64,000 nt of DNA from positions 113,365-177,364 of the IMG/VR virus record IMGVR_UViG_3300042402_001861. The stretch is one strand, 5' to 3'. Below are positions 8,580-55,300 of the stretch, piece after piece (within the stretch, counting starts at the first letter, position 1; each line of letters starts with the position of its first letter). This stretch comes from a virus. The notes beneath the pieces are model-generated. The model saw only the letters and a list, made by a program, of their open reading frames with translations, had not been told where the DNA came from and did not search any database. Position numbers and translations under genes: made by a program.

Positions 8580-8598
8580 CAAAAGTTTGTCTTTGCTG

Positions 8599-8626: not shown

Positions 8627-8627
8627 G

Positions 8628-8655: not shown

Positions 8656-8664
8656 CCCGACAAT

Positions 8665-8737: not shown

Positions 8738-8749
8738 CTATAGATACTT

Positions 8750-8821: not shown

Positions 8822-8826
8822 TATAT

Positions 8827-8931
8827 GCGTAGTTAAGCAGCAGGGGATAAACCGCTAGGCTTACTAGGGTCGCCTACTTGCAAGGGGTGATCTGATACAG
8901 AGCAACAGAGGTGCAAGTCCTCCGCTACGCT
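8827..8931 (+). ncRNA. aberrant tRNA-like RNA (105 nt)
   Basis: 7-bp acceptor GCGTAGT/GCTACGC; T-like arm GAGG-TGCAAGT-CCTC; internal hairpin GGTCGCC/GGTGATC around CTTGCAA; lies between bona fide tRNAs. Confidence 0.6.
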
Positions 8932-8935
8932 TCGA

Positions 8936-9007
8936 TGGCCCATAGCACAACGGTAGTGCGATCCGCTGTTAACGGATAGGTTGAAGGTTCGAATCCTTCT
9001 GGGCCAG
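8936..9007 (+). tRNA. tRNA-Asn(GTT)
   Basis: Acceptor TGGCCCA/TGGGCCA; anticodon arm ATCCG-CTGTTAA-CGGAT; T arm GAAGG-TTCGAAT-CCTTC. Confidence 0.92.
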
Positions 9008-9009
9008 TT

Positions 9010-9017
9010 TATAAATA
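9010..9017 (+). promoter_or_regulatory. T4 late promoter TATAAATA
   Basis: Exact T4 gp55 consensus upstream of the protease genes. Confidence 0.7.
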
Positions 9018-9052
9018 ACCGTGTATGAGCCGATGTTGAAAGGAGGCTCACC

Positions 9053-9850: not shown

Positions 9851-9892
9851 ACATCCATTGTCTCTATCTCGTACTTCTAGCAGGAGATCACC

Positions 9893-11299: not shown

Positions 11300-11316
11300 A
11301 AGAAACCGAGAGTGGC

Positions 11317-11344
11317 TTGACTTTGCTGTCCCTGTCGTTATACT
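11317..11344 (+). promoter_or_regulatory. sigma70-like promoter TTGACT-16-TATACT
   Basis: Upstream of the gp45 replication operon. Confidence 0.65.
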
Positions 11345-11371
11345 GTGAGCAACACTTTGGAGAACTACACC

Positions 11372-12079
11372 ATGAAGATCAGCCAAGACACACTCGCAAT
11401 CCTCAAGAACTTCAGCACGATCAACAGCAATCTGCTCGTTCGTCCGGGAAACACCCTGACCACGATCAGCCCCACCAAGAACATCCTCGCTGAAGCCACC
11501 GTCACCGAGACATTTGATGTTGAGTTTGGAGTTTGGGATTTGTCCAAGTTCCTCGCCACCATCAGCCTGTTCAAGGATCCCGAGTTTGACTTCAGCGATT
11601 CCTATGTGGAGATTTCCTCCACCGGCAGCAAGGCTTCGGTGAAGTACTACTACAGCGAACCCGAACTGCTCGTCAAGGCCGATAAGAAGTTGAAGATGCC
11701 GGGGACTCCCGTGAACTTCACCCTCACGGCCAAGGACTACACGGAGTTGCAGAAGGCTGCATCCGTCCTTCAGGCACCTGACCTTGCATTGGAGTCCACC
11801 GACGATGACCGCATGGTTCTCCGTGTCTTTGATCGCAAGGACAGCACAAGCCACTCCTACAGCATCGATGTCGGAGAGAACAAGAGCGGTGCGGCTTTCT
11901 CTTTCCTCTTCAAGACCGAGAACCTGAAGATGATTCCTGGCACCTACGAGGTGGGCATCAGCGAGAAGAAGGTGAGTCAGTTCCGCAACAGCAACGGCAT
12001 CACCTATTGGATTTCACTAGAGGCAGACAGCGAGTACGAGGCTTCCAACAACAAGATCGCCAATGTCGCTTCTCGTTGA
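11372..12079 (+). CDS. gp45: DNA polymerase sliding clamp
   Basis: MKISQDTLAILKNFSTINSNLL...FGVWDLSKFL...VKYYYSEP...YWISLE; precedes gp44. Confidence 0.95.
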   Translation: MKISQDTLAILKNFSTINSNLLVRPGNTLTTISPTKNILAEATVTETFDVEFGVWDLSKFLATISLFKDPEFDFSDSYVEISSTGSKASVKYYYSEPELLVKADKKLKMPGTPVNFTLTAKDYTELQKAASVLQAPDLALESTDDDRMVLRVFDRKDSTSHSYSIDVGENKSGAAFSFLFKTENLKMIPGTYEVGISEKKVSQFRNSNGITYWISLEADSEYEASNNKIANVASR

Positions 12080-33553: not shown

Positions 33554-34975
33554 ATGACTTCTGATCGAATCGAAACCCTTGTACTTCGTTCGCTGATTCA
33601 CGATGATGAGTTCGCTCGTCGGGCTTTGCCGTTCATCAAGCCCGAGTACTTCATGGATCGAAACGAGAAGGTGGTCTATGAAACCATCCACTCGTTCATC
33701 ACTACCTATAACAAGACTCCTACCGCAGAATCACTCTGCATCGACCTATCGAACCGTGATGGACTTTCCGAAGAAGAGTTCAAGCAGGCAAAGAAGGTAA
33801 TCGAAGAGATCGCGGAGTACAACAAGCCCGACACAGACTGGCTTGTCAAAAGCACCGAGAAGTTCTGCCGGGACAAGGCCATCTACAATGCCATCATGGA
33901 GTCGATTCAGATCATCGATGGCAAGGGCAATAAGACACAGAACGCCATTCCCGAGATTCTATCTGATGCCTTGGCTGTTTCGTTCGACACACACATCGGC
34001 CATGACTTCATCGATGACCACAACGAACGGTACGACTTCTACCACAAGATCGAACGGAAGATGCCGTTTGACCTTGAATACCTGAACAAGATCACTCAAG
34101 GAGGTGTACCGAGCAAGACACTCAATGTCATCCTCGCGGGCACGGGTGTGGGCAAGAGCCTCTTCATGTGCCATCATGCCGCCCAATGCCTTATCGGTGG
34201 GAACAATGTCCTGTACATCACCTGTGAGATGGCAGAGGAGAGGATCGCAGAACGCATCGATGCCAATCTCATGGACATCTCCCTTGATGACCTGAAGAAG
34301 TTGCCCAAGGACATCTACACCCGAAAAATGCAGAGGATCATGTCCTCCACTTCATCGAAGTTGATCATCAAGGAGTATCCCACAGCAACGGCAAATGCTA
34401 TGCACTTTGAACACCTGTTGGATGAACTGCGGCTGAAGAAGAACTTCAAGCCCGATATCGTGTTCATCGACTATCTCAACATCTGTGCATCAAGTCGCTT
34501 CAAGGCTAACTCCAATGTGAACTCCTACACTTATGTCAAGGCGATTGCCGAGGAACTTCGTGGCATGGCCGTCAAGTACGATGTTCCCATCTTCACGGCA
34601 ACACAGACCAATCGCGAAGGGTTCGGAAACAGCGATGTGGAACTCACCAACACAAGCGAGTCCTTCGGTCTTCCCGCCACGGCTGACTTCATGGTTGCCC
34701 TGATTTCCACCGAGGAACTTGAGGAACTTGGACAGTTGATGGTAAAGCAGTTGAAGAATCGATATGGTGACCCGTCAAGTAACAGGCGATTCGTTGTCGG
34801 TGTTGACCGCAGCAAGATGAAGTTGTTTGATTTGGATGCCTCCGCACAGCAAGGCATTTCTAAAATGGGCGATGCCGAGAAGGACGAGGAGCAGGAACAG
34901 GGAGGATTCAGGACTTTCCGTCAGCGGATGGAGGACAAGTTTGTCAAGAAGAATAATTTCGATGACTGGTCTTGA
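33554..34975 (+). CDS. gp41: DnaB-like replicative helicase
   Basis: LAGTGVGKS, EMAEERIAERID, IKEYPT, FIDYLNIC, SESFGLPATAD, QLKNRY. Confidence 0.97.
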   Translation: MTSDRIETLVLRSLIHDDEFARRALPFIKPEYFMDRNEKVVYETIHSFITTYNKTPTAESLCIDLSNRDGLSEEEFKQAKKVIEEIAEYNKPDTDWLVKSTEKFCRDKAIYNAIMESIQIIDGKGNKTQNAIPEILSDALAVSFDTHIGHDFIDDHNERYDFYHKIERKMPFDLEYLNKITQGGVPSKTLNVILAGTGVGKSLFMCHHAAQCLIGGNNVLYITCEMAEERIAERIDANLMDISLDDLKKLPKDIYTRKMQRIMSSTSSKLIIKEYPTATANAMHFEHLLDELRLKKNFKPDIVFIDYLNICASSRFKANSNVNSYTYVKAIAEELRGMAVKYDVPIFTATQTNREGFGNSDVELTNTSESFGLPATADFMVALISTEELEELGQLMVKQLKNRYGDPSSNRRFVVGVDRSKMKLFDLDASAQQGISKMGDAEKDEEQEQGGFRTFRQRMEDKFVKKNNFDDWS

Positions 34976-35519: not shown

Positions 35520-35593
35520 GGGGCGAGGGGGTCTTTGGTTGGCCCAGGAGAGTTTATACCTCTCTGGCGCAGGTTCGAATCCTGATCGCCCTA
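35520..35593 (+). tRNA. tRNA-Ile(TAT)
   Basis: Acceptor GGGGCGA/TCGCCCT; D arm GGGTC/GGCCC; anticodon arm GAGAG-TTTATAC-CTCTC; TTCGAAT T loop. Confidence 0.8.
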
Positions 35594-35628
35594 CTTGACG
35601 GATAAATACCACCACAAAGGAGATTGCC

Positions 35629-36061: not shown

Positions 36062-36092
36062 ACAGCCCCCGCTAGCAGGGGGCTGTTTCTTT
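36062..36092 (+). terminator. Rho-independent terminator
   Basis: ACAGCCCCC-GCTAGCA-GGGGGCTGT then TTCTTT. Confidence 0.8.
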
Positions 36093-36124
36093 AAATCAGG
36101 ATGGGGGAAAGGATAAATATGACC

Positions 36125-37372
36125 ATGATAAGGACTTTCTCAAGCCTGATCGAAGAGCGGCAACCCGTCATGGAGGCGGTGCAGTCGCAGCATCTTGATC
36201 ACCTTGAGGACTTGATCTTTTTGGATGGAGGGGTAAAGAAAGCCACCGAAATCCTTAAGAATCTGGTGAAGTCCTTGGCTTCAGCCACCCCTACGGCAAA
36301 GATGGTCATCACCACGAAGTGGGATGGGGCACCGGCAATAGTGGCAGGAATCCACCCGGCAACTAAGAAGTTCTTCGTGGCACTCAAGGGAGCAACCCTT
36401 TCTGCCAATCCCAAGATTTGCTATACACAGGCAGACATCAACCGGGAGTATGGAGACAAGGCGGAACTTGCATCCAAACTTTCAGTTTGCCTGAAGAACC
36501 TTCCCTCCGTGTTGCCTGCAAAGGGAATCTATCATGGGGACTTGCTCTTCACAGACAACAAGAAGATCGCCACAATTGACGGTACATCTATGGTGACTTT
36601 CCGACCAAACACGATCATGTATGCCGTTCCTGCTGACAGCCCAATGGGAGTGAAGATAAAGGCTGCAAAGATGGGAATCGTATTCCATACGCAGTACACG
36701 GGCACGGGCAAGGAACTCAAGGATCTGTCCAAGTCTCCCCTTTCCTCGCTGCAAGGGTTCAAGCAGACAACTGCCGTATGGTTCACGGGTGCCACTTTGC
36801 CGTCCCCGCCATCAGGATCAACCTTCCTCACGGCAAGCAACGCCAAGCAGATAGTTGACCTTATTGGATTGATTGCGGCATCGGCAACCCAAGTCAACTC
36901 ATTTCTCAAGATTGTGAAGAAGTCCCACGAAAAGGACATCTACGCAGAACTGATGCCCTTCATCAATTCGGGGGTTCGGGCAGGAATTTCAAAATACGAT
37001 TCCGCCAAGTTGAAGGTGTTCATCGAAGGTAAATACAATGCAGCAATCGCGAAGTTGAAGACACAGACAAAGATAGCAGAGAAACAAAACGACAAGAAGA
37101 AGGCAATTGCCTTCATCGATGCATACGCAGGGCAGTTTGATCAGTTGTTCAAGGTTCACTCGTTGGTGTCGGAAGCAAAGATGGTGGTAATCAGCAAGTT
37201 GTCTGAAGTAAAGACGATAGGAACATACTTGCCAACCGCATCCGGCTTGAAGGCAACCAATCCCGAAGGATTCGTTGCCGTGTGTGGAAAGACTTGTTCA
37301 ACCATCAAGTTGATAGACAGATTGGTGTTCGCAAACGCAAACATGAACATAACCAAGGATTGGAAGAAATGA
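36125..37372 (+). CDS. DUF6267-like conserved T4-like protein with ligase-type KxDG motif
   Basis: HLDHLED, TTKWDGAPAI, KFFV..K, GDLLF, PNTIMY, PEGFV, KLIDRL.F; late promoter 36112-36119; ATGA-coupled to the next gene. Confidence 0.75.
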   Translation: MIRTFSSLIEERQPVMEAVQSQHLDHLEDLIFLDGGVKKATEILKNLVKSLASATPTAKMVITTKWDGAPAIVAGIHPATKKFFVALKGATLSANPKICYTQADINREYGDKAELASKLSVCLKNLPSVLPAKGIYHGDLLFTDNKKIATIDGTSMVTFRPNTIMYAVPADSPMGVKIKAAKMGIVFHTQYTGTGKELKDLSKSPLSSLQGFKQTTAVWFTGATLPSPPSGSTFLTASNAKQIVDLIGLIAASATQVNSFLKIVKKSHEKDIYAELMPFINSGVRAGISKYDSAKLKVFIEGKYNAAIAKLKTQTKIAEKQNDKKKAIAFIDAYAGQFDQLFKVHSLVSEAKMVVISKLSEVKTIGTYLPTASGLKATNPEGFVAVCGKTCSTIKLIDRLVFANANMNITKDWKK

Positions 37373-40300
37373 AAACCTTCTCGGAAGCAACAAAGAACTT
37401 CAAGCCAAAGGGCAAGTCCGTAGTAGTGGCTGTTGGGAGGTTCAATCCCCCCACCACAGGGCATGAACTTCTTCTCAAGAAGGTCAAGGAAGTGCAGTCT
37501 GCAAAGGGTGCCGATGCTCATGTCATCTACTACAGTTATTCCAACGATCCTAAGAAGAATCCCCTGACTGCGGCGCAGAAAGCCAAGTATCTCAAGCAAT
37601 TCTTCCCCGGCTACAAGTTCAAGCAGATGCCCAAGCCTTCGGCAAAGGGTTCGGGTGTATATGCCTGTATGCAGGAGTTGAGCGACCAAGGCTACACACA
37701 GGTTTATGTTGTGACCGGTGCCGATCACATGACGGAATACCAACTTGTCAAGAAGTACATCAAGAAGACCCCGACACAGAAGGACGGGTACAACTTCAGC
37801 AAGTACGAGATAATCAGCGCAGGAGAGCGTGATCCCGATTCTGAGGGAGTGGTCGGCATGTCTGCAAGCAAGATGCGTAAGGCCGCATTCGATAAGGACA
37901 TCAAGACCTTCATGACGGGCATTCCTTCAGGAGTTTCCAAGACGGTAGCAAAGCAGATGTACAATGATGTCCGCAAGGGAATGAGCCTAAAGGAAGAGGT
38001 GATCGTAGAGGAAACCAAGACACCCGTGACGATCATCGCTCTCACTTCAAGCATGGAAGAGAGCGAGAAAAGCACAATCGGAAAGATGGAGGAAGCCTGC
38101 AAGAAGTACAAGGTGAACTTCCATCCGATCCGCATCAAGACCGCCACCATCAACATCGCCAAGGCAAGTCCCGACAAGATCACCATAGAGAACTTCGATG
38201 GCGAAGGAAATGATGTCACCATCATCCCGAACCAGACCCTGTGCGTTGTCCGTGGTGGCACGATGAACAGCGAAGTCGGCATTGCCCTCCTCATGTTGTT
38301 GCAGAACAACGGCGTATTCATGGTGAACGAACGAGGCGGCATGGATCTGTGTGCAAACAAGTTGCAGACTGCCATCACGCTAAAGCGACACAACATTCCT
38401 CACCCAAAGACTGCATTCGTCGCAGATGCTGAATCCATTCCCGATGCCCTGAAGCAGATCGGAGGGAAGTTCCCCGTCATCGTCAAAACCCTGACGGGAG
38501 CGGAGGGAATTGGCGTATCGATCATCGAAAGCGAAAAGTCACTTGTGTCCGTGCTGCAAAGCCTGTGGAAGTACGGTGCCGAGATCATTCTTCAGGAATT
38601 CATTCCCGGCTTCACCCATGATGTCCGAAGCATCTGTCTCAACGGCAAGATTTTCGCATCTGCCAAGCGAGACAAGGCCAAGGGAGACTTCAGAACGAAT
38701 ATTGCCCGTGGTTCAAAGGGCGGTTCATTCGAACTATCTGAGGACGAGATCAAGTTGGTGGAAACCGTGGCGAGGGTTTCCAAGTGCTACTATGTCGGAG
38801 TCGATCATGTGGTCGCTGGTGGAAAGCCTTACATCATAGAGATGAATGCGAGCCCCGGAAGCGGAAATGTCTACACTCTGTATGAGGACGGAAAGCCGAC
38901 AAAGGATGTTGATGGCGATGAACTTGTCGAAGAACTCGTCAAGCACCTGTCCAACAAGCAGAATTGGAAGTTGTTCAGTTCCGTCGCGGTGGTCGAACCA
39001 ATAAAGGTCGCAGGCGAGGAATTCTACGGCAAGGTGGATACGGGCAACAGCGGTTACAACTCAATCCATGCCACGGACATTAAGATCAACGAGAAGAACC
39101 ACACAGTCACCTTCAAGTTCAATGGCGAGAAGGAGATGACCAAGCCCATACAGAGCCGTATTCGTCTTCGCCATGGTTCTTCCAAGGAAGAGGCAGTCCG
39201 TCCGACTGTCCTGTTTGATGTTGAATTTAATGGCAGGGAATTCAAGAATGTCAAGTTCAGTCTTGCCGACAGAAGCCACATGAACTACAAGGTTCTTCTT
39301 GGTCTTCGTTTCCTCGTTCAGGCCGGTGTCATGGTCGATCCCAAGGACATGTCGGCTTCGAAGACGAAGATCGATGAGGAGAAACTTGCCATGCAAGGCA
39401 AGGAAATGAAGAGTCACCTTGACGGTCTGATTTCAAAGATCAGGGAAAAGCATGGAAGCACAAATGTGACCTATTCGCAGGCTATGAAGATCGTAGGTGC
39501 GACAGGTGCTGCTCGTCTTGCTGCCCGTGGAATGATTAAGCGTGACAGCGGCAAGAAGGAAAAGGGAGAACTTGGCAAGGAATCCGTGGAGGAATCCAAG
39601 TACACAACCAAGACCGGAAAGGCCGTGTCTCCTGCAAGAGACACGAAGGCCGACTTGCCGAAGAAGTATGTCGCTGGCCTGAGCAAGACGCAGAAGGCAA
39701 AGCGAAAGGCACAATTTGACAAGCGCAAGGACATTCCCGACAGCGATCCCCGTGCATGGAAGAAGTTGCCGGGTGATCCAAAGGAAACCAAGAGAAAGTC
39801 CAAGTACACTCAATTGTTTGCCAAGAAGTTTGGGAAGAAGGTTGAAGAGGCAATCGATCAATTGATGAAGATCGATTCACTCTCCATCCCCATGTCGGAA
39901 AAGGTCGAACGAGTCAGGGAATACCAATCCAAGTTGCAGACGAAGGAAGAAAGAGACATCTGCACGGTCTTTATTGAAGTCGTCAAGAACGAGATGTACG
40001 AACCATATTCCAACATCAAGACAACCTTGGACGAGGATTTCGAGTGGATGATGTACAACAGTACGGATTCAGAGTCCACGGCAAGAATCATTAAGAAGAA
40101 GTTGCAGGAAGTTCTTGAAATCGGAACCAACGAAATCGTCAAGGCGTATTCCAAGATGACTCCGGGGCAGAAGTACTACACCGAGGACAAGGCCAAGGAA
40201 GAGCAGGATGCCCTTTACAAGGAATGGGAAAAGTTGGTCAACATGGGTCCAAAGGAGTTGGAGTCCTTCATCGATTCAGATGAGGGCGAAGAAGCAGGAC

Positions 40301-40554
40301 TTTCCCGCAAGGAGGCTTCCAAAGCAGGAGCCAAGGGCGGAAAGATCAAGTCCGGACGAGACTCGGCCCGTGCCATTGTACGCATGTTGCAGACCAAGAA
40401 GAAGGATTGGACACCCAACGATTGGGAATGGGCACGAAGACAGGTCAATTTCATCACACGCATGAAGGGAGCCCAAGGACCGATGCGTGACGAAAAGGGT
40501 CGCCCAACAAGGAAACTTCTGGCTCTGAAGATTTGGGGCCACAACCCGGAATAA
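37369..40554 (+). CDS. multidomain polyprotein: HxGH nucleotidyltransferase + RimK-like ATP-grasp ligase + retropepsin-like protease + DUF5824 N-half + DUF3140-like domain
   Basis: GRFNPPTTGH...SASKMR; ANKLQT/PVIVKTLTGAEGIGV/LQEFI/GDFRTN/IEMNASPG; KVDTG...SLADRS.M.YKVLLG; KYVAGLS...SKYT; LVNMGPKELE...LKIWGHNP. Confidence 0.88.
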   Translation: MKTFSEATKNFKPKGKSVVVAVGRFNPPTTGHELLLKKVKEVQSAKGADAHVIYYSYSNDPKKNPLTAAQKAKYLKQFFPGYKFKQMPKPSAKGSGVYACMQELSDQGYTQVYVVTGADHMTEYQLVKKYIKKTPTQKDGYNFSKYEIISAGERDPDSEGVVGMSASKMRKAAFDKDIKTFMTGIPSGVSKTVAKQMYNDVRKGMSLKEEVIVEETKTPVTIIALTSSMEESEKSTIGKMEEACKKYKVNFHPIRIKTATINIAKASPDKITIENFDGEGNDVTIIPNQTLCVVRGGTMNSEVGIALLMLLQNNGVFMVNERGGMDLCANKLQTAITLKRHNIPHPKTAFVADAESIPDALKQIGGKFPVIVKTLTGAEGIGVSIIESEKSLVSVLQSLWKYGAEIILQEFIPGFTHDVRSICLNGKIFASAKRDKAKGDFRTNIARGSKGGSFELSEDEIKLVETVARVSKCYYVGVDHVVAGGKPYIIEMNASPGSGNVYTLYEDGKPTKDVDGDELVEELVKHLSNKQNWKLFSSVAVVEPIKVAGEEFYGKVDTGNSGYNSIHATDIKINEKNHTVTFKFNGEKEMTKPIQSRIRLRHGSSKEEAVRPTVLFDVEFNGREFKNVKFSLADRSHMNYKVLLGLRFLVQAGVMVDPKDMSASKTKIDEEKLAMQGKEMKSHLDGLISKIREKHGSTNVTYSQAMKIVGATGAARLAARGMIKRDSGKKEKGELGKESVEESKYTTKTGKAVSPARDTKADLPKKYVAGLSKTQKAKRKAQFDKRKDIPDSDPRAWKKLPGDPKETKRKSKYTQLFAKKFGKKVEEAIDQLMKIDSLSIPMSEKVERVREYQSKLQTKEERDICTVFIEVVKNEMYEPYSNIKTTLDEDFEWMMYNSTDSESTARIIKKKLQEVLEIGTNEIVKAYSKMTPGQKYYTEDKAKEEQDALYKEWEKLVNMGPKELESFIDSDEGEEAGLSRKEASKAGAKGGKIKSGRDSARAIVRMLQTKKKDWTPNDWEWARRQVNFITRMKGAQGPMRDEKGRPTRKLLALKIWGHNPE

Positions 40555-40559
40555 TTCAA

Positions 40560-40826
40560 ATGCAAAGATTCAAAAACTACATCTCCGAAGACAAGCCAGC
40601 CGCACATACATCCTTGGAGAAGAAGTCCAAGGCTTCAGGCATCCCTTACCGCTTCCTCAAGCAAGTCTATGACCGTGGAGTGGTCGCATGGAAGGGAGGC
40701 CATAGGCCGGGGGCTGGCCCCGAGCAATGGGGTCTGGCAAGAGTCAACAGTTTCATCGTCGGCGGCAAGACTCGTCATACCGCCGATGCAGACATTTGGA
40801 AAAAGTACAAGGGCAGCAAGCGTTAA
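40560..40826 (+). CDS. DUF5824 C-half protein
   Basis: SGIP..FLKQVYDRGVVAWKGGHRPGAGPEQWGLARVNSF..GGKT..TADADIW. Confidence 0.75.
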   Translation: MQRFKNYISEDKPAAHTSLEKKSKASGIPYRFLKQVYDRGVVAWKGGHRPGAGPEQWGLARVNSFIVGGKTRHTADADIWKKYKGSKR

Positions 40827-40870: not shown

Positions 40871-41788
40871 ATGCACAGTAACAAAATCTCTGCCAATTTG
40901 CAAAATGACATTCTGAAGGTTCTTCGTGGCGAAACTATTTCGAAGACCGAACTCCCGACCGCCATCATGGAGGCCGCAAAGCAGGCTTCCATCGATCTGG
41001 GTCATGCCTTCCTTGACGAGGGCTATCTGTCGGCAGAACGCCGCCGCGACATCCTTCGCCGCAACCTCGCAGAGGGGTTGAAGAAGTGCGGATGCACTCC
41101 GACCACGGAAATGATCAACCGCTACGAGGAAGAGGCTTCCAAGCCCGTTCAGGTTGATGCTAAGAAGGAAGTTGCCGAGGAAACCAAGAAGGAAGAAGTC
41201 GTTGATGAGGCAGTAGTGACCGAAACCGAAGAAGAAACTCTTACCGAAAGCAAGGCTAAGGTCACACAAACAAAAGATGGCCGTTATTTCTTCGAATATC
41301 CAGGAATGAGTGCAACAACACGGGCTGGACTTATGCTCTGGGTAAGAGAGGTGTTTGGAACAAACGACAAAACCTACACCTCGGCTAATACTAAGAAAGC
41401 ATATGACACACTTGCCAAACATGCAGATGGAATCAATGCATGGATGAAAAAGAACAATTTCGGATCATTTGCCAACGGTACGCACCCTAACTATAAGCAC
41501 CTTATTGGTTATTATCTGAAGAACCTAAAGGGTGTAAATATTAAGGGCAAGTACGATGTTAAGAATGATCTCGGAGCCGGTAAGACTTTAAAGAAGGAAG
41601 AAGTCGTTGATGAGGCTGCATCCGACATGATGCTTCGCTCTTGGATTCGCAACAATTATCCAAGCGCCGACAACACCAAGTTCAACAAGATCCTCGCAGC
41701 AATGCAGAAGCAGTACAACAAAGACCCCAAGGGCTATACCTACGGTGGCGGCTTCAGCAAGGTTGCAAAGGACGCAGGGATCAAGTAA
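40871..41788 (+). CDS. acidic modular internal head protein
   Basis: Late promoter 40834-40839; repeated KKEEVVDEA linkers. Confidence 0.65.
   Translation: MHSNKISANLQNDILKVLRGETISKTELPTAIMEAAKQASIDLGHAFLDEGYLSAERRRDILRRNLAEGLKKCGCTPTTEMINRYEEEASKPVQVDAKKEVAEETKKEEVVDEAVVTETEEETLTESKAKVTQTKDGRYFFEYPGMSATTRAGLMLWVREVFGTNDKTYTSANTKKAYDTLAKHADGINAWMKKNNFGSFANGTHPNYKHLIGYYLKNLKGVNIKGKYDVKNDLGAGKTLKKEEVVDEAASDMMLRSWIRNNYPSADNTKFNKILAAMQKQYNKDPKGYTYGGGFSKVAKDAGIK
41186..41616 (+). repeat. 26-bp direct repeat AAGAAGGAAGAAGTCGTTGATGAGGC (41186-41211, 41591-41616)
   Basis: Two exact copies flanking a compositionally distinct module. Confidence 0.85.
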
Positions 41789-42731: not shown

Positions 42732-43328
42732 ATGCGTTTCAAGGACTTGCGTAAGAAGATTGAGGAAGCAATGCTTCCTACCGACTACTACGGTGGGTAT
42801 GTTGTCGGCACAAAGGTTGGACCCTTGGACTCTCAGGACAATGCAGTTGATGCTCCCGAGGCCAGCGTCCACAAACTCACGCATCAGGAATTGAAGAGAC
42901 TCAACACCTTCCTTGGTGCTTCAGAGGACAAGGCTTACATTGATGTGAATGTAGCCATCAACAACATGAAGCAGAAGTTGCAGACACAGGGCATTTCGTT
43001 TGACTTCAAGCCCGATGATGTGATGGAAGACGGCGATCACATCTTCCCGCTGAAGCAGTTCGGCGGACGCTACGGAATGGACGGGACATCCTACAATCCA
43101 ATCAACGACGATGGCATCACCCATCGTCTTGGTCACGGATTGAACCTGATGATCACCACCATGCGTCAGTCAAACGGCCTCACCAACATGTGTGCCAAGA
43201 TTTGTCCTGCCAATGAAATGCCAACCTCTCCCGAGATGAAGCCCAAGAATGCACCCATGAACATGTCGGCAAGCACGGTAATGGCAAACAAGAATCCATT
43301 CACCAACCCGACATTCTCCAAGCAATAA
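42732..43328 (+). CDS. conserved T4-like hypothetical protein
   Basis: MRFKDLRKKIEEA; LKQFGGRYG..DDGI motif. Confidence 0.65.
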   Translation: MRFKDLRKKIEEAMLPTDYYGGYVVGTKVGPLDSQDNAVDAPEASVHKLTHQELKRLNTFLGASEDKAYIDVNVAINNMKQKLQTQGISFDFKPDDVMEDGDHIFPLKQFGGRYGMDGTSYNPINDDGITHRLGHGLNLMITTMRQSNGLTNMCAKICPANEMPTSPEMKPKNAPMNMSASTVMANKNPFTNPTFSKQ

Positions 43329-45419: not shown

Positions 45420-45542
45420 CGCTATGTATGCGTGACCGTTGCTGAAAATCCCACTTTTTCGGGCAGTTACAACAATTATTTTTGCGGCGAGAAAAAGAGG
45501 GCGGAAGTCAACTTTTAGTGAGCGAATCGTTGAGATTTGCTG

Positions 45543-45570
45543 TTGACTGTCTTCGTTGGTGGTGTATACT
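45543..45570 (+). promoter_or_regulatory. sigma70-like promoter TTGACT-16-TATACT
   Basis: Upstream of primase ATG 45582. Confidence 0.65.
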
Positions 45571-45581
45571 TTCCGAACCAC

Positions 45582-46622
45582 ATGAGCAACTACATCGACA
45601 GCAAGTACATCAACATCATCTCCCCTAGGCTGCAACGCTTTGGGTGGAAGAAGCAGAGCCTTGCTGTCTGTCGATGCCCCATCTGTGGAGACAGCCAGAA
45701 GTCCAAGAGCAAGACGAGGTTCTACTTCTACGAGAAGAAGGGCGGATTCTTCGTCCGTTGCCACAATTGCGACTATGGCACCACCTTGGGGAAGTTCATC
45801 GAATACATCGATCCGTTCGTGTACAAGCAGTACATGCTTGAGAAGTACCGTGATGGTCTTGAGGGTCGCCATGACGGAAAGGCCGATGCCGAGAAGCAGT
45901 TCAAGTTTGAAAAGCCCGTGTTCGAAAGCAAGCGCAGGGAACTTCTGCTTGAATCCCTTGAGCCCTTGACCGATCTGCCCGATGACCACAAGGCGGTGGA
46001 ATTCGTCAGGAACCGAAGGATTCCCGTGGAGCAATGGGAGAGGCTTTACTTCACGGAGGACTTTGGGTGGTGGGCCAAGCAAGTCGATCCCGAGATCGAA
46101 TCCCCTCCCGACGAGCGGTTGGTCATTCCAATCATGCGTGGCAATCGATTGGTTGCAGCACAGGGAAGATCGCTGTCTTCCACGGCTTCCGGCAGGATCA
46201 TTCGCTACATCACCATCAAGCGAGACAAGGACTTGCAGTCCATCTGGTTCGGCTTGGAGCGCATCGACAAGACCAAGCCCGTGATTGTGGTCGAAGGACC
46301 GCTCGATTCGCTGTTCCTTCCCAACTGCGTGGCAATGCTTGGAGCAAAGCACATCGGTGAACTGCCTGCGGAACTTGAGGGATGCAACATTACCTTTGCC
46401 CTTGACAATGAGCCAAGGAACAAGGAAGTGGTGGGAATTTATCAAAAACTCGTGGAAGACGGATACCGTGTCTGCTTCTGGCCTGAGAACATTCGGGTGA
46501 AGGACATCAACGACATGGTGATTGCAGGACACGAACCCAAGGAAATTGAAAGAACGATACGGGAAAATTCGTCAAGTGGGCTGATTGCCAGACTGAAACT
46601 GTCCACATGGCGGCATACATGA
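45582..46622 (+). CDS. gp61: DNA primase
   Basis: Zn finger CRCPICGDSQ...CHNC; TOPRIM VVEGPLDSLF..N.VAM; LDNEPRN; KDINDM. Confidence 0.96.
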   Translation: MSNYIDSKYINIISPRLQRFGWKKQSLAVCRCPICGDSQKSKSKTRFYFYEKKGGFFVRCHNCDYGTTLGKFIEYIDPFVYKQYMLEKYRDGLEGRHDGKADAEKQFKFEKPVFESKRRELLLESLEPLTDLPDDHKAVEFVRNRRIPVEQWERLYFTEDFGWWAKQVDPEIESPPDERLVIPIMRGNRLVAAQGRSLSSTASGRIIRYITIKRDKDLQSIWFGLERIDKTKPVIVVEGPLDSLFLPNCVAMLGAKHIGELPAELEGCNITFALDNEPRNKEVVGIYQKLVEDGYRVCFWPENIRVKDINDMVIAGHEPKEIERTIRENSSSGLIARLKLSTWRHT

Positions 46623-48140: not shown

Positions 48141-49595
48141 ATGGCCAAATTCCGAGACTTCATAGGCAAGGAACCCGATCCCGAAGGGTTGGAAGAACTG
48201 TACAAGGAATTTCAGGAGTTCATGGAGGCTCCTGAGCCGGATGTAGTCTCGTCTGCAACATCCAAGCAAAAAATCCGAGTAGTGAGGGGTTCACCCGGCC
48301 CGAAGGGCGAAAAGGGTGACAAGGGAGACACCGGCGAACGGGGTCTTCGTGGTTTGCGTGGAATCACAGGCCCAAGGGGCGAAAGAGGTGACCGTGGCGA
48401 GAAGGGCGACAAGGGCGAGCGTGGCGAAAAGGGTCCGCAGGGCGAAAGAGGTCCGCAAGGCGAGGTCGGCCCCCGTGGGGAAAAAGGAAGTGACGGGAAA
48501 GCGGGTGCCCAAGGCACACCTGGACCCCAAGGTCTTCGTGGCGAAAAAGGTGACAAGGGAGACAGAGGAGAAGCAGGGCCGCAAGGACTGAAGGGGGTTG
48601 CTGGTCCCAAGGGGGACAAGGGAGAGAAGGGCGATGTAGGCCCACGGGGTATCGCTGGCCCCAAGGGAGACAAAGGAGATAAGGGCGATAAGGGAGACAA
48701 GGGTGAGCCGGGTCTTCAGGGAATCGCCGGAGTCGCGGGAGCCAAAGGAGAGAAGGGTGCTGTTGGTCCAGTTGGTCCGCAGGGCAAGCGTGGTTCCAAG
48801 GGACAAAAGGGTGACCGTGGAGAAAAGGGCGAGAAGGGTGATGTTGGTCCTGCCGGTCCACAAGGTGAGAAGGGTGCCACGGGAGACTCTGGCGTTCTTC
48901 ATGCAATCTATCCACTCAAGTACGATCCCAAGTCAAAGACACTCAAGGTAGACCTTACCAACCTGAATCGCGGAACCACCGTACTGGGCAATCCCGGCGG
49001 CGGAATGGGTGAAGCATTCAAGTTCGTTGAAGTCGCAGGACAGCCCGGTCTTACTGCCATCCAGTATCAGGCAGAGACTCTTCGGTTCGATGCAGGCAAC
49101 AATGTACAACTGATCACCAACCCTGCGACGAACAGCATAACCATATCCTCTTCGGGCACGAACTTCTTCTATCAGCCCGATCCCCCGACATCGGGATTCA
49201 CCGCCGGTTCACGATGGATGGATTCGGATGATGGACAGGAGTACATCTACATCAATGACGGCAACACGCAGCAATGGGTGCAGCCCACGGTGAATCCTGC
49301 AATGGTGGTTGCCGTGACATCGGTAACGGGAAGCACATACCTAGCCACGGGTAGGGATCACTACATCGGTGTCAACGCAACCGGACCCGTGACGATAACT
49401 CTTCCTTCCCTGCCGTTCACGGGAAGGGAAATCATCGTCAAGGATGAGTCGGGTCGGGCAGGAGAGCCTTATCGATACATCACCATAGTCGGTGCAACGG
49501 CGGCAGACACGGTTGACAACCAAGAGTCCGCAACCATCAATCTAAATAACGCAGGACTGCATTTCATATACAACAATGGGTGGAGAATAGTATGA
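48141..49595 (+). CDS. collagen-like virion/fibre protein
   Basis: 68 uninterrupted G-X-Y triplets; late promoter 48129-48134; C-terminal ITLP..P..GREIIVKDE motif. Confidence 0.85.
   Translation: MAKFRDFIGKEPDPEGLEELYKEFQEFMEAPEPDVVSSATSKQKIRVVRGSPGPKGEKGDKGDTGERGLRGLRGITGPRGERGDRGEKGDKGERGEKGPQGERGPQGEVGPRGEKGSDGKAGAQGTPGPQGLRGEKGDKGDRGEAGPQGLKGVAGPKGDKGEKGDVGPRGIAGPKGDKGDKGDKGDKGEPGLQGIAGVAGAKGEKGAVGPVGPQGKRGSKGQKGDRGEKGEKGDVGPAGPQGEKGATGDSGVLHAIYPLKYDPKSKTLKVDLTNLNRGTTVLGNPGGGMGEAFKFVEVAGQPGLTAIQYQAETLRFDAGNNVQLITNPATNSITISSSGTNFFYQPDPPTSGFTAGSRWMDSDDGQEYIYINDGNTQQWVQPTVNPAMVVAVTSVTGSTYLATGRDHYIGVNATGPVTITLPSLPFTGREIIVKDESGRAGEPYRYITIVGATAADTVDNQESATINLNNAGLHFIYNNGWRIV
48288..48899 (+). 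repeat. collagen (Gly-X-Y)68, charged (GEK/GDK/GER)
   Basis: Counted from the translation. Confidence 0.9.
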
Positions 49596-50827
49596 GTTAC
49601 CTTTTCAACGATCAAGTGCAATTCAAGGGAAATGCAGTAGATGCCTTCAACCGATTGAAAGTCTCTGCACCTTTCACGCTTTTCGACAGCCAGAATCGCT
49701 ATCAGATGAACGACAAGTGGGACACATTCGGTGCCACCGGAGGTACTGCCACATTCGCAGTACTTGAAAGCGCCATCAACATGACCGTGGGAACAACGGC
49801 AGGAAGCAAGGTCACACGGGAAACCAAGAGGGTGTTCCCCTACCAACCCGGCAAGTCCCTGCTCGTCCTCAACACCTTTGCAATGAACACTCCCAAGGAT
49901 GGTCTGTTGCAGCGGGTAGGGTATTTCGGCATCACGGGAGGGGCGACCGCATCCGTTCCCTTCAATGGCATCTACTTGCAGCAAGACGGGCTCACGATGT
50001 CCATGTGCTTGGCTAGTGCGTCACTTGGCAACACAATCACGGTCAATCAGTCAAATTGGAATGGAGACAAGTTCGATGGAAACGGAGAGTCGGGAAGGAC
50101 TCTTGATCCAACCAAGGGAAACATAATGTGGATGGACATTGAATGGCTCGGTGTCGGTGATGTGAGGACAGGGTTCATTGTAGATGGACGGCCAATCGTT
50201 GCCCATACATTCCACAACGACAACCTGAATCCAACGACCTACATGACAACGGCGATATTGCCGATTCGGTATGAACTGATGAATACCAAGGGGCAGACCG
50301 GAAGCAGCACGATGAAGCAGATATGCTCATCCGTGATAAGCGAGGGTGGATATGAAGGATTCAGCCGCAGACACAATGTCACCCATAACGGAGCAACCCT
50401 AAAGACCCTGACCACGGCGGGGGTGCAGTATCCGATCATCGCACTTCGACTCAATTCCAATCGGCTCGACAGCGTTGTGGTTCCTTCCAACATCAATGCC
50501 GTGATTCAGGAAACCAGCAACAACAAGCCCAACACGGCACAGTATCGCATACTGTTCAACCCATCGATAAGCGGCGGTTCATGGGTCACCCACTACAACG
50601 GAAATGTTGACTACAACAACACAATGGCAAGCATAACTGGTGGAACCGACATCATAGGCGGATACATCAGCAGCAGCGGATCTTTGGTAATATCGGATGT
50701 CAATGACTTCAATTTCCAAATCGGAAGAACCCAACTTGGAGTTAGCGATGTGATCGTGTTCACCATGACACCAATCTATGATGGTGCAAAGATATGCGCT
50801 GACTTCTCTTGGTTTGAGATCATCTGA
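49592..50827 (+). CDS. virion structural protein (beta-rich)
   Basis: [17 protein letters not shown]...YQPGKS...WLGVG.VR.GF motifs common in large-phage virion proteins; ATGA overlap. Confidence 0.7.
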
Positions 50828-52362
50828 TGCCCTTGGACTTTCCGTCGAATCCCTTCCTAAACCAGGTCTATGCTGCCAATGGCAAGGCTTGGCGATGGAA
50901 CGGAGCCGCATGGGAGACACACAACGCATCCCTTACGGTTGATTATGTCTCGGACATTAACGGCATATCCGGCAGCGTATCACTCACGGCTGGTGCAAAT
51001 GTAACCATCACGAAGTCGGGACAGACCCTGACAATTGCGTCTAGCGGAGGCGGCGGTGGAGGAACAGGAAGCGGCGCAAATGGTGCCACAGGAGCAACAG
51101 GTGCTACTGGTCCTGTGGGTGCCACAGGTCCGCAGGGTGCTACTGGTTCCACGGGTCCGCAGGGTGCCACGGGTACACAAGGCCCAACAGGCCCACAGGG
51201 TGCAACGGGTACACAAGGCCCAACAGGCCCACAGGGTGCAACAGGTCCTCAAGGAGAAATTGGCCCTCAAGGCATTCAGGGTGAAAGTTTTTACTTTAGA
51301 GGCCCTTACGGTGGTTCAGAGATTGTTTATAATCTCAATGATGTAGTTACATTCATTGGCAATTCTTATATTTGTTTAACTAATGGTCTTACTGGCTCTC
51401 AACCAGATTCTTTAGTGGGTTGGGATGTATTTGTAGAAAAGGGTTCAACTGGCCCACAGGGTGCAACAGGTCCGCAAGGTGCAACTGGTGCAAATTCAAC
51501 TGTTCCCGGCCCAACAGGCCCAACAGGTCTGCAAGGTGCAACGGGCTCACAGGGTGCAACGGGTACACAAGGCCCAACAGGCCCACAGGGTGCAACGGGT
51601 ACACAAGGATCAACAGGCCCACAGGGTGCAACAGGTCCGCAAGGTGCAACGGGCTCACAGGGTGCCACGGGTGCTACAGGAAGAATAGCGTTCACCTATG
51701 GTGCAACTGCTCCATCTTCGCCTCAAATGGGAGATCAATGGCTCAATGAAGTCAATGGAAATCTTTATACTTGGCTGGTCGATGAGGGAGAAGGAACAGG
51801 CCAATGGGTCAACTACAACACAAGCATCACGACAATAGGTGGCGATGGTGCAACAGGAGTCAACAAATTTACCTACAGTTCTATGGAACCAACTGGTTCC
51901 ACATCTGGAGATGAATGGCTGAATTCTGTTGACGGGAAACTCTACACCTACCTTGTGGATGCAGGCGAAGTGACAGGACAATGGGTAGAACTTTCCGTGA
52001 TTCCCGATGCCATAAACACATCGTTCCGTGGACCATCAGGAAACACCTTGGGACCATTGACATTCTCTCAGCAGGCTACATCCGACTATACGCTTGTCAT
52101 TGGTGATTCTGCCAAGACCATAGAGATGGTATATGGTTCTGCCAACACATTGCAGATTCCCTCATACTCCAATGTTGCATTCCCCACGGGTACTCAGATC
52201 ATGGTCATGCAGGCTGGGGCAGGGAACACATCATTGACAGGGGCTGCCGGTGTTACCCTGAATTCAAGAAATTCAATGTTTTCTCTGAACGGCCAATGGT
52301 CGGTCGTGACTCTTGTAAATAGGTCAATAGATACTTGGGTCGTACACGGAGACTTGGCCTGA
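50827..52362 (+). CDS. tail-fibre-like protein with Thr-rich collagen repeats
   Basis: [13 protein letters not shown]...W.WNG.AW; GPQGAT/GPT repeats; two GD.W(L)N...LY modules; C-terminal YTLVIGD...LNGQWS.VTL...W...GDL. Confidence 0.8.
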
Positions 52363-55300
52363 TGGGAGCAGAAGATATCATCATAAAGTTGAAGCGTGGT
52401 GTTTCGGGTGGGGCAGCACCGACTGGCCTGACCCACGGTGAACTTGCCATAAACACCACGGATGTCCGTCTGTATGTTGGTTCCTTGACTGGCTCGGTTC
52501 TGGCGATAAACAACAGGTTCTTCACCGGGGCTACCGCTCCCGATTACCCAATCGAAGGAGACAGATGGTACAACGGCACATATGAAAGTGCCTACATCTC
52601 TGGTTCTTGGCAGGCTGTGGGCGGTGGAGGTGGAACTGGATCATTCAATCCTGCAAACTTGCTGATGTTTGTCGCTGGGGCAAGTGGTTCTGGCGGAATT
52701 ACCTTCTCGGGAAATTTTACGATCACCAACAATCTTGGTGGAACTACTGAAATTCTAAACGGTCTGACCGTTGTTGGGGGAATCACAGGAAGCATTCTGA
52801 CCGCAACCCAACCAAATATCACCTTGGTGGGAATCCTTTCCTCGCTTACTGCATCGGGGCTGATCTCTGCAAACGCCGGTCTGTCGGCAAGCAACCTGTT
52901 TGTTACCAATGGTGCCACCTTTGGCTCCAACATCTATGCGCCAAACATGGTCACGGGTGTCAATGGAATCACAGGTGCGGTAACCATCACATCCGGTTCC
53001 AACATCACGATCACTCAGTCGGGCAAACAGATAACAATAGCGGCTGCTGCAACTCCCGCAACTCTTGCCACCTCAAGTGTTACCGGTGTTGCCTCTTTCC
53101 GTGCAGCGGACTTTGATGTATCTGTGACTGGTTCGGTGAGTCTCACGGGAACCGTGGCAAGAACCAATGTTTCTCAGACATTCACCGGATTGCAGACATT
53201 TGGTTCCGGCATTTCTGGCAACGGCATCACGGGAACTTTGCTGACTTCGACGCAGCCAAACATAACATTGCTTGGTTCGTTGTCTGCGCTTACTGCTGCC
53301 AATGTTCAGGTTTCTGGCGGTGGGCTCAGCGTAACAGGCGGAATCGCGGGAACAATAGTTACGGCTTCTCAACCCAATATTACTGCAATAGGAACTCTAT
53401 CTTCTTTCAGTACGGCAGGACTTACCTCGTTCGAAAGAATCAACATCACCAATGGTGGACTTTCTGCCTCTGGTCCTGTCTTCATTCAGTCCAATGGCCT
53501 AAGTGTAACTGGTGGAATCGCAGGAACCCTGTTGACCGCTGCACAGACCAACATCACATCGGTTGGTGTACTCAACGGATTGTCTGTCAACAACGGACTC
53601 AGCGTCACGGGTTCTCTGGTTGTGACGGGATCAGCAGACATCTTTGGTGGTCTATTCATTGACTCCGGTGGCTTGAGTGTTACTGGCGGCATTGCAGGAA
53701 CAATAGTCACACCATCACAGACCAACATTACATCCGTTGGTGTTCTGAACGGACTTTCTGTTAACAATGGTTTGAGTGTCACGGGTGGAATTAGCGTAAC
53801 TGGTGGAGTTAGTGTTGGTGGTGGAGGACTTAGTGTAACTGGCGGAATCGCAGGAACCCTGTTGACTTCTGCACAAACCAACATCACATCAGTTGGAACC
53901 TTGTCGAACCTGACGGCAACGAATGTTCAAATTTCAAGTGGTGGACTAAGTGTCACGGGTGGCTTGAGTGTGACTGGTGGTGAAACCCTCTTTGGTGGCT
54001 CAAGGATTCAAAGTGGTGGCTTGAGTGTCACGGGAGGCATTGCCGGAACTCTTGTAACTGCTGTACAGACAAACATCACTTCGGTTGGAACCTTGACTTC
54101 CTTGTCCACAGCAGGACTCACTTCCTCTCAGAGGATCAATATCACCAACGGTGGTCTATCGGCAGCAGGACCAATATTCATCCAATCCAATGGCTTGAGT
54201 GTGACTGGTGGCATTGCGGGAACACTATTGACCGCTGCACAAACCAACATCACATCAGTTGGAACCTTGTCGAACCTGACGGCAACAAATGTTCAAATTT
54301 CAAGTGGTGGACTGAGCGTCACGGGTGGCTTGAGTGTGACTGGCGGATCTACTCTGTTTGGGGGAGGAACGATACAAAGTGGTGGCTTGAGTGTCACGGG
54401 AGGCATTGCCGGAACTTTGCTCACAGCAGCACAACCCAATATCACATCCGTGGGAACCCTGACTTCACTCAATTCCTCGGGCCTGATCTCTACTACTGCG
54501 GGTCTTTCTGGGAATAGCCTTAATATTGCTGCCGGTGCAACATTCAATGGTGCGGTAAGGATCTTTGGAGACTTGTTGGTGAGTGGTGGAATCACCACGA
54601 CCGTTAGTGAAAATGTCCTGATCGAAGACAACTTCATCGTCCTCAATTCCAACGCAACTGTAGCAGACAGCGGAGGCATAGAAGTTTATCGTGGACCAGC
54701 CGCTACTAATCGTATTCTTAGGTGGAACGAGTCTAGCGGTACATGGCAATACACAAATGATGGAACCACCTATTTCAACATAGCGGCTGCCGGTGCGCTT
54801 CCACTAGCATCCGCTACCGTTACGGGTGTTGCCTCGTTTGGCAATGAGTTTGTCGTATCCGCTCTTGGTGCAGTAAGCCTGACAAGCAATTATGTGCGAT
54901 CCGTGAATGGTGTAACAGGTGGTGTTACCGGTGTCGCCTGGAACTTCCTGCCACAGACATTCACAGGGTATCAATCCTTCTCAAGCGGTGTTTCGTCTTC
55001 AAACCTCTATGTCTCCACGGGTGCAACATTTGCCGGTGGAGTAAACATAAGTTCTGGTGGCTTGAGTGTCACGGGAGGAATTGCCGGAACTATCGTAACT
55101 CCAAGCCAGACCAACATCACGACTGTTGGTTCCTTGGTGTCCTTGTCAACGGCAGGACTTACTTCTTCACAGAGAATCAATATCACCAATGGTGGTTTGT
55201 CTGCTGCCGGACCAGTATTCATCCAATCCAACGGGTTGAGTGTAACTGGCGGAATCGCAGGAACTTTGTTGACAGCGACACAAACAAACATCACATCGGT

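Follow-up and report, generated by a model that had tools for sequence, protein, structure and literature searches.

A putative head-cargo polyprotein in an uncultured T4-like phage joins a nucleotidyltransferase to a RimK-like glutamate ligase and a RimB-like protease

RESULTS

Locus and domain organization

The final 64 kb of the 177,364-bp virus record IMGVR_UViG_3300042402_001861 (estimated completeness, 98%), here called the window and used for numbering unless the record is named, contains an unbroken open reading frame (ORF) of 1,061 codons at 37369-40554 on the plus strand; its product of 118.6 kDa (pI 9.4), the polyprotein of this study, carries a HIGH-motif nucleotidyltransferase (NTase), a RimK-family ligase, a RimB-like protease, and a series of small C-terminal modules (Table 1). 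A first-pass annotation made from the letters alone had proposed that this protein is packaged in the virion and cut into its parts, and profile searches bore out both the intact frame and the place of each domain that it had listed; the five Glu-rich linker strings that it had quoted lie at residues 206-215, 667-671, 739-743, 824-828, and 937-940. The gp41-type helicase of the record is about 60% identical to gp41 of T4-like cyanophages, and we therefore regard the virus as an uncultured relative of the Kyanoviridae. The architecture is not a chance assembly, since at least 136 clusters of similar length share it and the catalytic motifs are invariant.

The gene lies between those for the gp41 helicase and the primase, and beyond the latter follow thymidylate synthase and then fiber and virion genes. 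Its start codon and the TGA that ends the upstream DUF6267 gene overlap (ATGA); for the latter gene, alternative in-frame ATGs occur at 36119 and 36125, the product from 36125 beginning M-I-R-T-F-S-S-L-I-E-E. The interval is syntenic with the gp41-to-primase interval of cyanophage S-SZBM1, which harbors an NTase homolog detected by mass spectrometry (MS) and reads gp41, ..., DUF6267 (ORF141), NTase (ORF140), ..., DUF7207 (ORF135), ..., primase; the DUF6267 product is 33% identical to ORF141. A protein-atlas search returned viral DUF6267 clusters only and gave no functional lead, and a phmmer search with DUF6267 gave no matches. DUF6267 is joined to the NTase in phrog_455, P0247, and P0124, and the C-terminal half of DUF5824, a separate gene downstream of the polyprotein in this genome (66.5 bits, profile positions 52-123 of 127), is fused in frame in 22 NTase-bearing relatives; because of these fused forms, we consider both neighboring genes to be parts of the functional set of the polyprotein. 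The downstream gene has its own leader, M-Q-R-F-K-N-Y-I-S-E followed by D, with a putative cut after the Glu.

Table 1. Coordinates of the polyprotein gene parts and adjoining features (window numbering)
Feature	Position	Strand	Evidence or remark
gp41 helicase	33554-34975		Upstream flank of polyprotein gene
DUF6267 gene, upstream partner	36101..37372	+	423 aa from first ATG; PF19782 4e-89
ATAAATA late-promoter-like motif	36113..36119	+	Start of DUF6267/polyprotein gene pair
Leader M-K-T-F-S-E, then Ala; candidate capsid-targeting propeptide (FSE-6)	37369..37386	+	
HIGH-motif nucleotidyltransferase, adenylyltransferase-like	37387..37980	+	phrog_3041 4e-57, phrog_395 5e-44, residues 13-212
NTase-RimK linker; candidate protease sites L-K-E|E and I-V-E|E	37981..38016	+	
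RimK-family ATP-grasp alpha-L-glutamate ligase domain	38017..38973	+	PF08443 6.4e-31, TIGR00768 1.1e-40
RimB-like retropepsin-type aspartic protease domain	38974..39354	+	PF05618 5.7e-10; DTGN 39037-39048
Post-protease linker I-D-E|E, basic two-helix module, and disordered linker with V-E-E|S	39355..39603	+	
Basic module, DUF5824 N-half (K-T-G-K ... L-P-K-K-Y-V), ending K-V-E-E|A	39604..39852	+	PF19141 7.3e-5
Acidic helical middle module (MID)	39853..40176	+	Residues 829-936
DUF3140 (plus DUF6321-like) C-terminal domain	40177..40554	+	PF11338 3.4e-10; PF19846 4.5e-6
Separate downstream gene, DUF5824 C-half	40560..40826	+	88 aa; PF19141 3.2e-18
Primase	45537-46622		Downstream flank of polyprotein gene

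Three enzyme domains

On the basis of its modeled structure, we assign the N-terminal domain to the HIGH-motif superfamily (NMNAT/NadD/PPAT/cytidylyltransferase), a fold match that does not fix the substrate. The nucleotidyltransferase call of the first-pass annotation stands, but the literal HxGH motif that it gave does not: the protein reads T-T-G-H (TxGH) at residues 29-32 (37447-37464), followed by S-A-S-K-M-R at residues 165-170 (37858-37878), and both motifs are invariant. T-x-G-H is a normal variant in the superfamily and is the form found in PPAT. In a non-redundant alignment of the family, G-R-x-N-P-P-T-x-G-H and S-x-x-R show little or no variation. The Pfam model CTP_transf_like scored 19.4, just below its cutoff of 21, and a search of the NTase family profile against PDB sequences found nothing significant (best E value, 0.53). 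An AlphaFold model of the domain (pLDDT, 84.5) matched NadD, PPAT, and NadM best in Foldseek, with E values of 9e-8 to 1e-5 (NadD, 8.8e-8; PPAT, about 1e-6) and TM scores of 0.5 to 0.68.

The RimK ATP-grasp region spans residues ~230-500 (PF08443, 107.9 bits against a cutoff of 21), and the nearest solved structures are Pseudomonas RimK (7qyr, 2.3e-27) and E. coli RimK (2e-21). The domain falls 3.6 bits short of the TIGR00768 cutoff (139.8 versus 143.4 bits) and far short of that of the S6-ligase equivalog NF007764 (78.8 versus 331 bits), so that we call it a RimK-family glutamate ligase and not an S6-ligase ortholog; MptN was the second-best NCBIfam match (7e-34), CofF scored 1.9e-15, and all equivalog models were far below their cutoffs. 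The motifs D-V-R, D-F-R-T-N, and I-I-E-M-N-A-S-P-G, whose residues we presume to have the catalytic and Mg-binding roles of their counterparts in other ATP-grasp enzymes, are present and are conserved or invariant throughout the family. The retropepsin-like domain that follows (residues 550-660; PF05618, 39.7 bits against a cutoff of 27) was correctly recognized from its DTG motif in the first-pass annotation, and its D-T-G-N at residues 557-560 is invariant; neither the RimB equivalog NF052261 (27.8 versus 200 bits) nor the RloA3 model (36.6 versus 210 bits) was reached. Since the NTase motifs, the ATP-grasp motifs, and D-T-G-N are invariant or nearly so in the non-redundant alignment, all three enzyme domains look active, as far as can be predicted from conservation.

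The RimK part (residues 217-535) passes into the RimB-like part (residues 536-662) without a flexible linker, and among the retrieved relatives the two are never split by one; we predict that they act as a single unit, abbreviated here as K-B. This unit most likely represents a writer/eraser pair that adds alpha-linked glutamate tails to a protein target and removes them. No RimA partner was seen in the gene neighborhood. As the ligase lies so far below the S6-ligase model, the reversible tagging of host ribosomes envisaged in the first-pass annotation is without support, and we rate such predicted tagging as unlikely.

A run of five to nine Glu residues occurs in 44 of the 189 retrieved D-T-G-N proteins, always 115 to 117 residues downstream of D-T-G, immediately beyond the protease domain, and nowhere else. 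RimB strips poly-Glu tails and also cleaves internal Glu8 linkers (PMC11957791), and autocleavage at the tract by the adjoining protease domain is plausible in the relatives that bear it; in these relatives, such a cut would leave a Glu-tailed K-B fragment, the kind of end that RimK extends. The polyprotein itself has only D-E-E at the corresponding place. Thus, cutting by its own aspartic protease, which had been offered as one route of processing, gains from the fixed tract of its relatives but is unlikely for this polyprotein.

C-terminal modules

The C-terminal half was modeled as helical modules set between disordered linkers, two of these modules being very basic (pI 10.3 to 10.4) and one acidic. 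The two-helix module at residues 676-726 has a pI of 10.4 and a pLDDT of about 80, which drops to <50 over residues 727-753; in P0032 and P0026, this module is preceded by I-I-E|A-D or L-N-E|A-D. The N-terminal half of DUF5824 was matched at residues 764-831 (profile positions 1-62 of 127), as the first-pass annotation had suggested, although its 23.4 bits lie under the cutoff of 25; the basic module that contains it (residues 746-828) has a pI of 10.3. The helices of MID have a pLDDT of about 80, and MID-DUF3140 also occurs as the small stand-alone proteins P0170 and P0188. The DUF3140-like C terminus (residues 952-1043) scored 40.7 bits against a cutoff of 25, in keeping with the earlier reading; it is the most conserved part of the protein after RimK, with >50 invariant columns and a pLDDT of 81 to 90. 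A fold search with the C-terminal 391 residues found generic helical matches only (Z at most 7.5), and we make no fold claim for these modules owing to the low confidence of the model (pLDDT 66, pTM 0.32).

The polyprotein ends in W-G-H-N-P-E followed by the stop codon. Self-glutamylation of this C-terminal Glu was considered and dropped, most homologs continuing with K, KK, or KKS. Relatives carry additional small modules inserted in the C-terminal region, which may be likened to the variable internal-protein loci of T-even phages (PMC9026906). Two relatives of ~1160 aa, P0117 and P0123, have an extra C-terminal module of ~200 residues with a D-G-H-H-R-W motif, which we take to be reminiscent of ParB/sulfiredoxin-type domains; to judge by its sequence, this extra module shows that other activities may be plugged into the same scaffold.

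Relatives and module shuffling

A word-indexed search found the 136 clusters of similar length, a lower bound, nearly all with the same Pfam set and on contigs of up to 182 kb; an exhaustive search gave 8,574 matches and 493 representatives at E <1e-30, on aquatic metagenome contigs. For an architecture census, the polyprotein was cut into segments that were mapped onto all retrieved proteins. More than 100 proteins had the form NTase-K-B-(DUF5824N)-(MID)-DUF3140, where DUF5824N denotes the N-terminal half; NTase-K-B alone was found in 9 proteins, K-B alone in 63, and the NTase with DUF5824N, with or without its C-terminal half, in 25. Fusions to the upstream gene, DUF6267-NTase and DUF6267-NTase-K-B, were also present, and modules were thus shuffled, split, and fused among the relatives. 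In one distant relative, L004, a single protein of 1,325 aa (8001-11978) combines DUF6267, NTase, RimK, and RimB, an RNA-ligase-family gene adjoins the helicase, and NAMPT is encoded in the vicinity. The metagenome contigs that bear 10 sampled K-B clusters are <=118 kb long, and the one context fetched looks phage-like; these contigs bear only indirectly on whether the ligase-then-protease order occurs in cellular genomes. Within a collection of 50,697 phage records, a megablast search with the polyprotein gene found no match and no cultured phage covered >=80% of the polyprotein.

Homologs in virions

Homologs of two parts of the polyprotein have been reported from virions. The "cytidylyltransferase" ORF140 of S-SZBM1 was 1 of 30 proteins detected by liquid chromatography (LC)-MS in CsCl-purified particles (PMC9146016); it is 36% identical to the N-terminal domain over 185 residues (polyprotein residues 7-184) and begins M-R-F-R-Q-F-I-I-E-A. 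S-CREM2 ORF154, the gene under tblastn match H34 to the same domain, is virion associated (PMC10665884), and NMNAT-like proteins are frequently found in cyanophage virions, those of S-SCSM1 and S-CBWM1 included, and are probably virion carried (PMC9602691). For the K-B unit, the homolog YerA41_066 from Yersinia phage YerA41 bears a structural-protein annotation, and LC-MS of purified particles is reported in the paper on that phage. These YerA41 data are weak, because polymerases and other nucleic-acid enzymes are among the 63 proteins found and, according to the record, ribonucleotide reductase is present in the particle.

Leader and boundary sites

The targeting sequence of T4 internal proteins is M-K-T-Y-Q-E-F-I-A-E, followed by Ala. 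Its first 10 residues are enough for targeting, for which residues 4 and 7 matter, while residues 8 and 10 matter for cutting (PMC9026906); T4 Alt is cut after Glu at ITE-6, with the loss of six residues, and at LTE-619 (PMC5694885). Among the polyprotein family, the residues preceding the first NTase strand follow the pattern (F/L)-x-x-x-(I/L/V)-x-E-A, as in M-K-K-F-T-Q-I-I-A-E-A of P0010, and the first 18 residues include (I/L/V)-x-E in 48 of 62 non-redundant homologs. An aromatic residue followed by (I/L/V)-x-E was present in 43% of NTase-first N termini and in 34% of RimK-first N termini, versus 8% and 7%, respectively, of internal control windows; because it heads both kinds of protein alike, the leader belongs to the N terminus and not to one domain. 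The polyprotein has a short form, M-K-T-F-S-E|A, which is probably constrained, given that M-K-T-F-(S/L)-(E/Q)-A is kept in 27 retrieved proteins; among the matches listed, the short-leader proteins are 52 to 99% identical overall to the polyprotein.

Candidate sites of the same kind mark the module boundaries. Across the five boundaries, (I/L/V)-x-E lies <=14 residues upstream of the module start in 61 to 100% of the 62 non-redundant homologs (56/56, 5/5, 28/46, 42/59, and 33/37), compared with a background of 20%; the 56/56 belong to the NTase-RimK boundary, where G(M/L)xLxEE(Y/W)(I/L)xE is conserved in the linker. (I/V)-x-E-A is kept directly before the DUF5824N module even in otherwise unalignable linkers, and in the polyprotein the boundary sites fall within segments predicted to be disordered. 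With the leader counted in, cuts in the polyprotein are predicted after residues 6, 209 or 214, 670, 742, and 827.

Throughout the genome, M-(K/R/Q)-x-F ... (I/L/V)-x-E begins 6 ORFs versus 0.2 expected, among them the prohead protease and the DUF5824-C gene. Candidate head cargo with such leaders includes two ORFs of the window without a Pfam family (287-934 and 6737-7621, both plus strand) and two outside it (record 112914-113654, plus strand, and 102212-102454, minus strand); the leaders of these four are M-K-S-F-I-A-F-I-S-E-A, M-R-R-F-R-S-F-V-S-E-G, M-K-S-F-R-G-H-I-T-E-V, and M-Q-S-F-R-Q-H-I-L-E-A. Two further ORFs of the record (86051-87112, minus strand, and 96070-96768, plus strand) follow ATAAATA and have N-terminal peptides that end in Glu, M-K-E-F-Q-G-L-K-D-Y-L-E-E (then a P-loop-like G-G-A-G-S-G-K-G) and M-K-S-L-L-E-H-L-L-Q-E.

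Prohead protease and putative late-promoter motif

A prohead protease of the gp21 family is encoded in the genome (Peptidase_S77, 70699-71136 of the record; E value, 2e-37, above the cutoff). The DUF6267/polyprotein gene pair is headed by ATAAATA, and a GC-rich hairpin with a T run (~36064-36092) lies ahead of it. The window has 8 copies of this heptamer versus 2.8 expected (1406, 9011, 12989, 21195, 35602, and 36113 on the plus strand; 3931 and 12839 on the minus strand), a number reached in 0 of 100 shuffles; most of the 17 copies in the 177-kb genome lie 6 to 36 nucleotides before gene starts, that of the gp22-like scaffold gene included. By its placement, ATAAATA behaves as the predicted late-promoter core of this phage.

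Other features of the window

Downstream of the DUF5824-C gene, an ORF of 305 aa (40871-41788, plus strand) contains K-K-E-E-V-V-D-E-A twice (residues ~105-113 and ~240-248), each with V-D-E|A, and I-M-E|A-A near its N terminus; it has no PHROG or Pfam match and from these motifs looks like a further linker-delimited cargo protein. The 198-aa ORF at 42732-43328 (plus strand) has a leader-like start, M-R-F-K-D-L-R-K-K-I-E-E-A; BLASTP found no similarity between it and S-SZBM1 ORF136, a 199-aa protein of the corresponding stretch annotated as a virion structural protein. A tRNA-Ile gene (anticodon UAU; 35520-35594, plus strand) separates the helicase from the cargo genes, and a tRNA cluster at 8665-9007, upstream, comprises tRNA-Leu(CAA), tRNA-Gly(UCC), and tRNA-Asn(GUU). 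The giant ORF of 2,841 aa at 52335-60860 (plus strand) has tail-fiber-like matches at its C terminus; listed beside it are 48141-49595 and 50827-52362 (both plus strand), and two collagen-repeat fiber proteins flank a virion structural protein.

DISCUSSION

We suggest, with a modest leaning in favor, that this T4-like relative of the Kyanoviridae expresses the 119-kDa protein late, as a polyprotein that serves as head cargo. Five independent lines point toward packaging: the virion proteomics of homologs, the leader, the boundary sites, the gp21-family protease, and ATAAATA. The packaging of this polyprotein, its cutting, its ejection, and its substrate are inferred. A short N-terminal leader would direct the precursor into the core of the assembling prohead, and a gp21-type prohead protease would then cut the flexible linkers after the Glu of (I/L/V)-x-E sites, releasing an adenylyltransferase-like enzyme, the joined RimK-RimB unit, several small basic modules whose size and charge are like those of T4 internal proteins, and the DUF3140 domain. 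The pieces would leave the capsid with the DNA and would act at the very start of infection. Virion delivery and gp21 cutting, as put forward in the first-pass annotation, thus receive indirect support, and we consider packaging and gp21-type processing slightly the likelier outcome, although the leader has Phe at P3.

That residue (F-S-E, where the canonical one is Leu or Ile) is one of several features that weigh against head cargo, as is T-K-N-F at the place where relatives read (I/L/V)-x-E-A. The enrichment of leaders and boundary sites is overstated because the sequences are related and the linkers are rich in Glu, and the conserved L-x-E-E segment could, according to the model, be the last helix of the NTase (residues 191-204) and not a linker site. 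The poly-Glu tract of some relatives is missing. A cargo of 119 kDa is large, and the gene is placed in the replication region, away from the head module. Abundant enzymes are frequent contaminants of virion proteomes, as the YerA41 list exemplifies, and the homologs covered by the MS evidence correspond to the N-terminal domain or to the K-B unit, with no full-length homolog among them.

What the ejected pieces would do is a more speculative matter. An injected RimK/RimB-like pair might add and trim Glu tails on a host protein within seconds, while the NTase and the DUF6267 protein might act on a nucleotide substrate, a scheme that we hold to be doubtful; its candidate targets, ribosomal protein S6, a defense protein, or a DNA-binding protein, modified before phage gene expression, are equally tentative.

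The alternative that survives best, though it too appears improbable to us, is that the protein is an unpackaged cytoplasmic multidomain enzyme, an auxiliary metabolic gene product that stays in one polypeptide while it functions during infection and whose leader and linkers are structural or fortuitous. The place of the gene, flanked by gp41 helicase and primase and with genes of nucleotide metabolism close by, would suit such an enzyme, as would the lack of an aliphatic P3 residue in the leader; the cyanophage homolog has been treated in papers as an auxiliary metabolic gene, and domain fusion usually denotes a single enzyme complex. However, several independent studies detected homologs in virions, the leader stays at the N terminus irrespective of the domain that follows it, the boundary motifs sit in disordered and unalignable linkers, a late-promoter motif is present, and the varying, shuffled modules of the C-terminal part are unlike those of a fixed enzyme.

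It is less probable still that the protein is packaged but acts inside the prohead while the head matures, and not in the host, the ligase and protease working on a Glu-rich core or scaffold protein or on their own poly-Glu and the basic modules condensing DNA. The constant position of the E5-E9 tract relative to DTG in 44 of 189 relatives, the cleavage of internal poly-Glu by RimB (PMC11957791), the extremely Glu-rich N terminus of the scaffold-like protein of this genome, and the pI of >10 of modules 676-726 and 746-828 would all fit; yet this polyprotein has no such tract, the ligase would need ATP and free glutamate to be supplied within the prohead, and nothing known of T4 head maturation calls for such an activity. 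We regard as the least probable of these alternatives a ligase that acts on a small molecule and, with the NTase, makes or remodels a metabolite that is glutamylated or linked to a nucleotide, for example, in NAD-related chemistry directed against host defense: the RimK-family enzymes MptN and CofF, which both matched the ligase, add glutamate to cofactors, the NTase resembles NMN/NaMN adenylyltransferases and PPAT in its fold, NAMPT is encoded nearby in L004, and the cyanophage homolog has been called NMNAT (PMC9602691), but the equivalog models are all far below their cutoffs, NAMPT was not found in this genome, the NTase fold match is at the superfamily level only, and peptide substrates are favored by the poly-Glu tracts of relatives and by the fusion to a RimB-like domain that cuts peptides. 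Two other ideas were dropped: an NAD-salvage pair with NAMPT, for want of NAMPT in the genome, and a role in DNA hypermodification, suggested by YerA41, whose thymidine modification is reported to be oligosaccharide, not peptide, in character.

T4 Alt and IPI are the classic head-ejected proteins. In returning to the head-cargo interpretation, we note that T4 Alt and IPI-III have a short N-terminal leader that is cut after Glu (PMC9026906, PMC5694885), of which the leader of the polyprotein is a candidate counterpart, a gp21-family protease being encoded in this genome as well. An enzyme (Alt) and small basic proteins serve as cargo in T4, and the cargo genes are likewise hypervariable and shuffled. 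The polyprotein differs in stringing many modules together in a single precursor of 119 kDa, with candidate cut sites between its functional domains, and in its predicted enzymes, an adenylyltransferase-like protein and a glutamate ligase with a protease; it is not homologous in sequence to Alt or to the internal proteins. In the giant phages phiKZ and SPN3US, too, a T4-related prohead protease cuts after Glu and enzymes are delivered with the DNA (PMC5694885), but their cleavage motif is A/S/G-x-E, their propeptides are long, and their proteins are unrelated.

The first-pass annotation had also presented the combination as a candidate new system, a claim that holds only in part. RimK and RimB of Pseudomonas and a bacterial RimBK hybrid with the protease first have been described (Little et al. 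2025, PMC11957791), and these share with the polyprotein a RimK-family ligase and a DTG protease of PF05618, combined in one polypeptide in the case of RimBK; the reported specificity of RimB fits the poly-Glu tracts beside the protease in relatives of the polyprotein. In contrast to the hybrid, the polyprotein is viral, has the ligase before the protease, and embeds both in a larger protein. This order with added domains is not described in the literature searched, which contained no long precursor combining it with an NTase and small modules and apparently built for head delivery, no mention of DUF3140, and no paper on "cytitidyltransferase" or on RimK with phage and cytidylyltransferase. 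T4 capsid targeting and gp21 processing are already known, as are virion-associated NMNAT-like cyanophage proteins. S-SZBM1 ORF140, S-CREM2 ORF154, and S-SCSM1 ORF91 are homologous to polyprotein residues ~7-215 and occupy the same genomic place, after a DUF6267 gene in the gp41-to-primase interval, and S-SZBM1 ORF140 has a leader of the same kind; these proteins of ~190-360 aa are without the RimK, RimB, and DUF3140 parts.

Head-ejected proteins work ahead of phage gene expression and are little-explored tools of host takeover and counterdefense. If our proposal is true, the polyprotein would add to them a new cargo chemistry, ATP-dependent glutamate ligation with a matching protease, and a new cargo format, a multienzyme polyprotein cut by the head protease; were the RimK/RimB-like pair indeed injected, this would be the first case of a virus that injects a protein-glutamylation system. 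The head-cargo interpretation also offers a testable reason for the recurrence of "cytidylyltransferase/NMNAT-like" proteins in the proteomes of cyanophage virions, and the poly-Glu tract beside the RimB-like domain of relatives provides a simple biochemical entry point.

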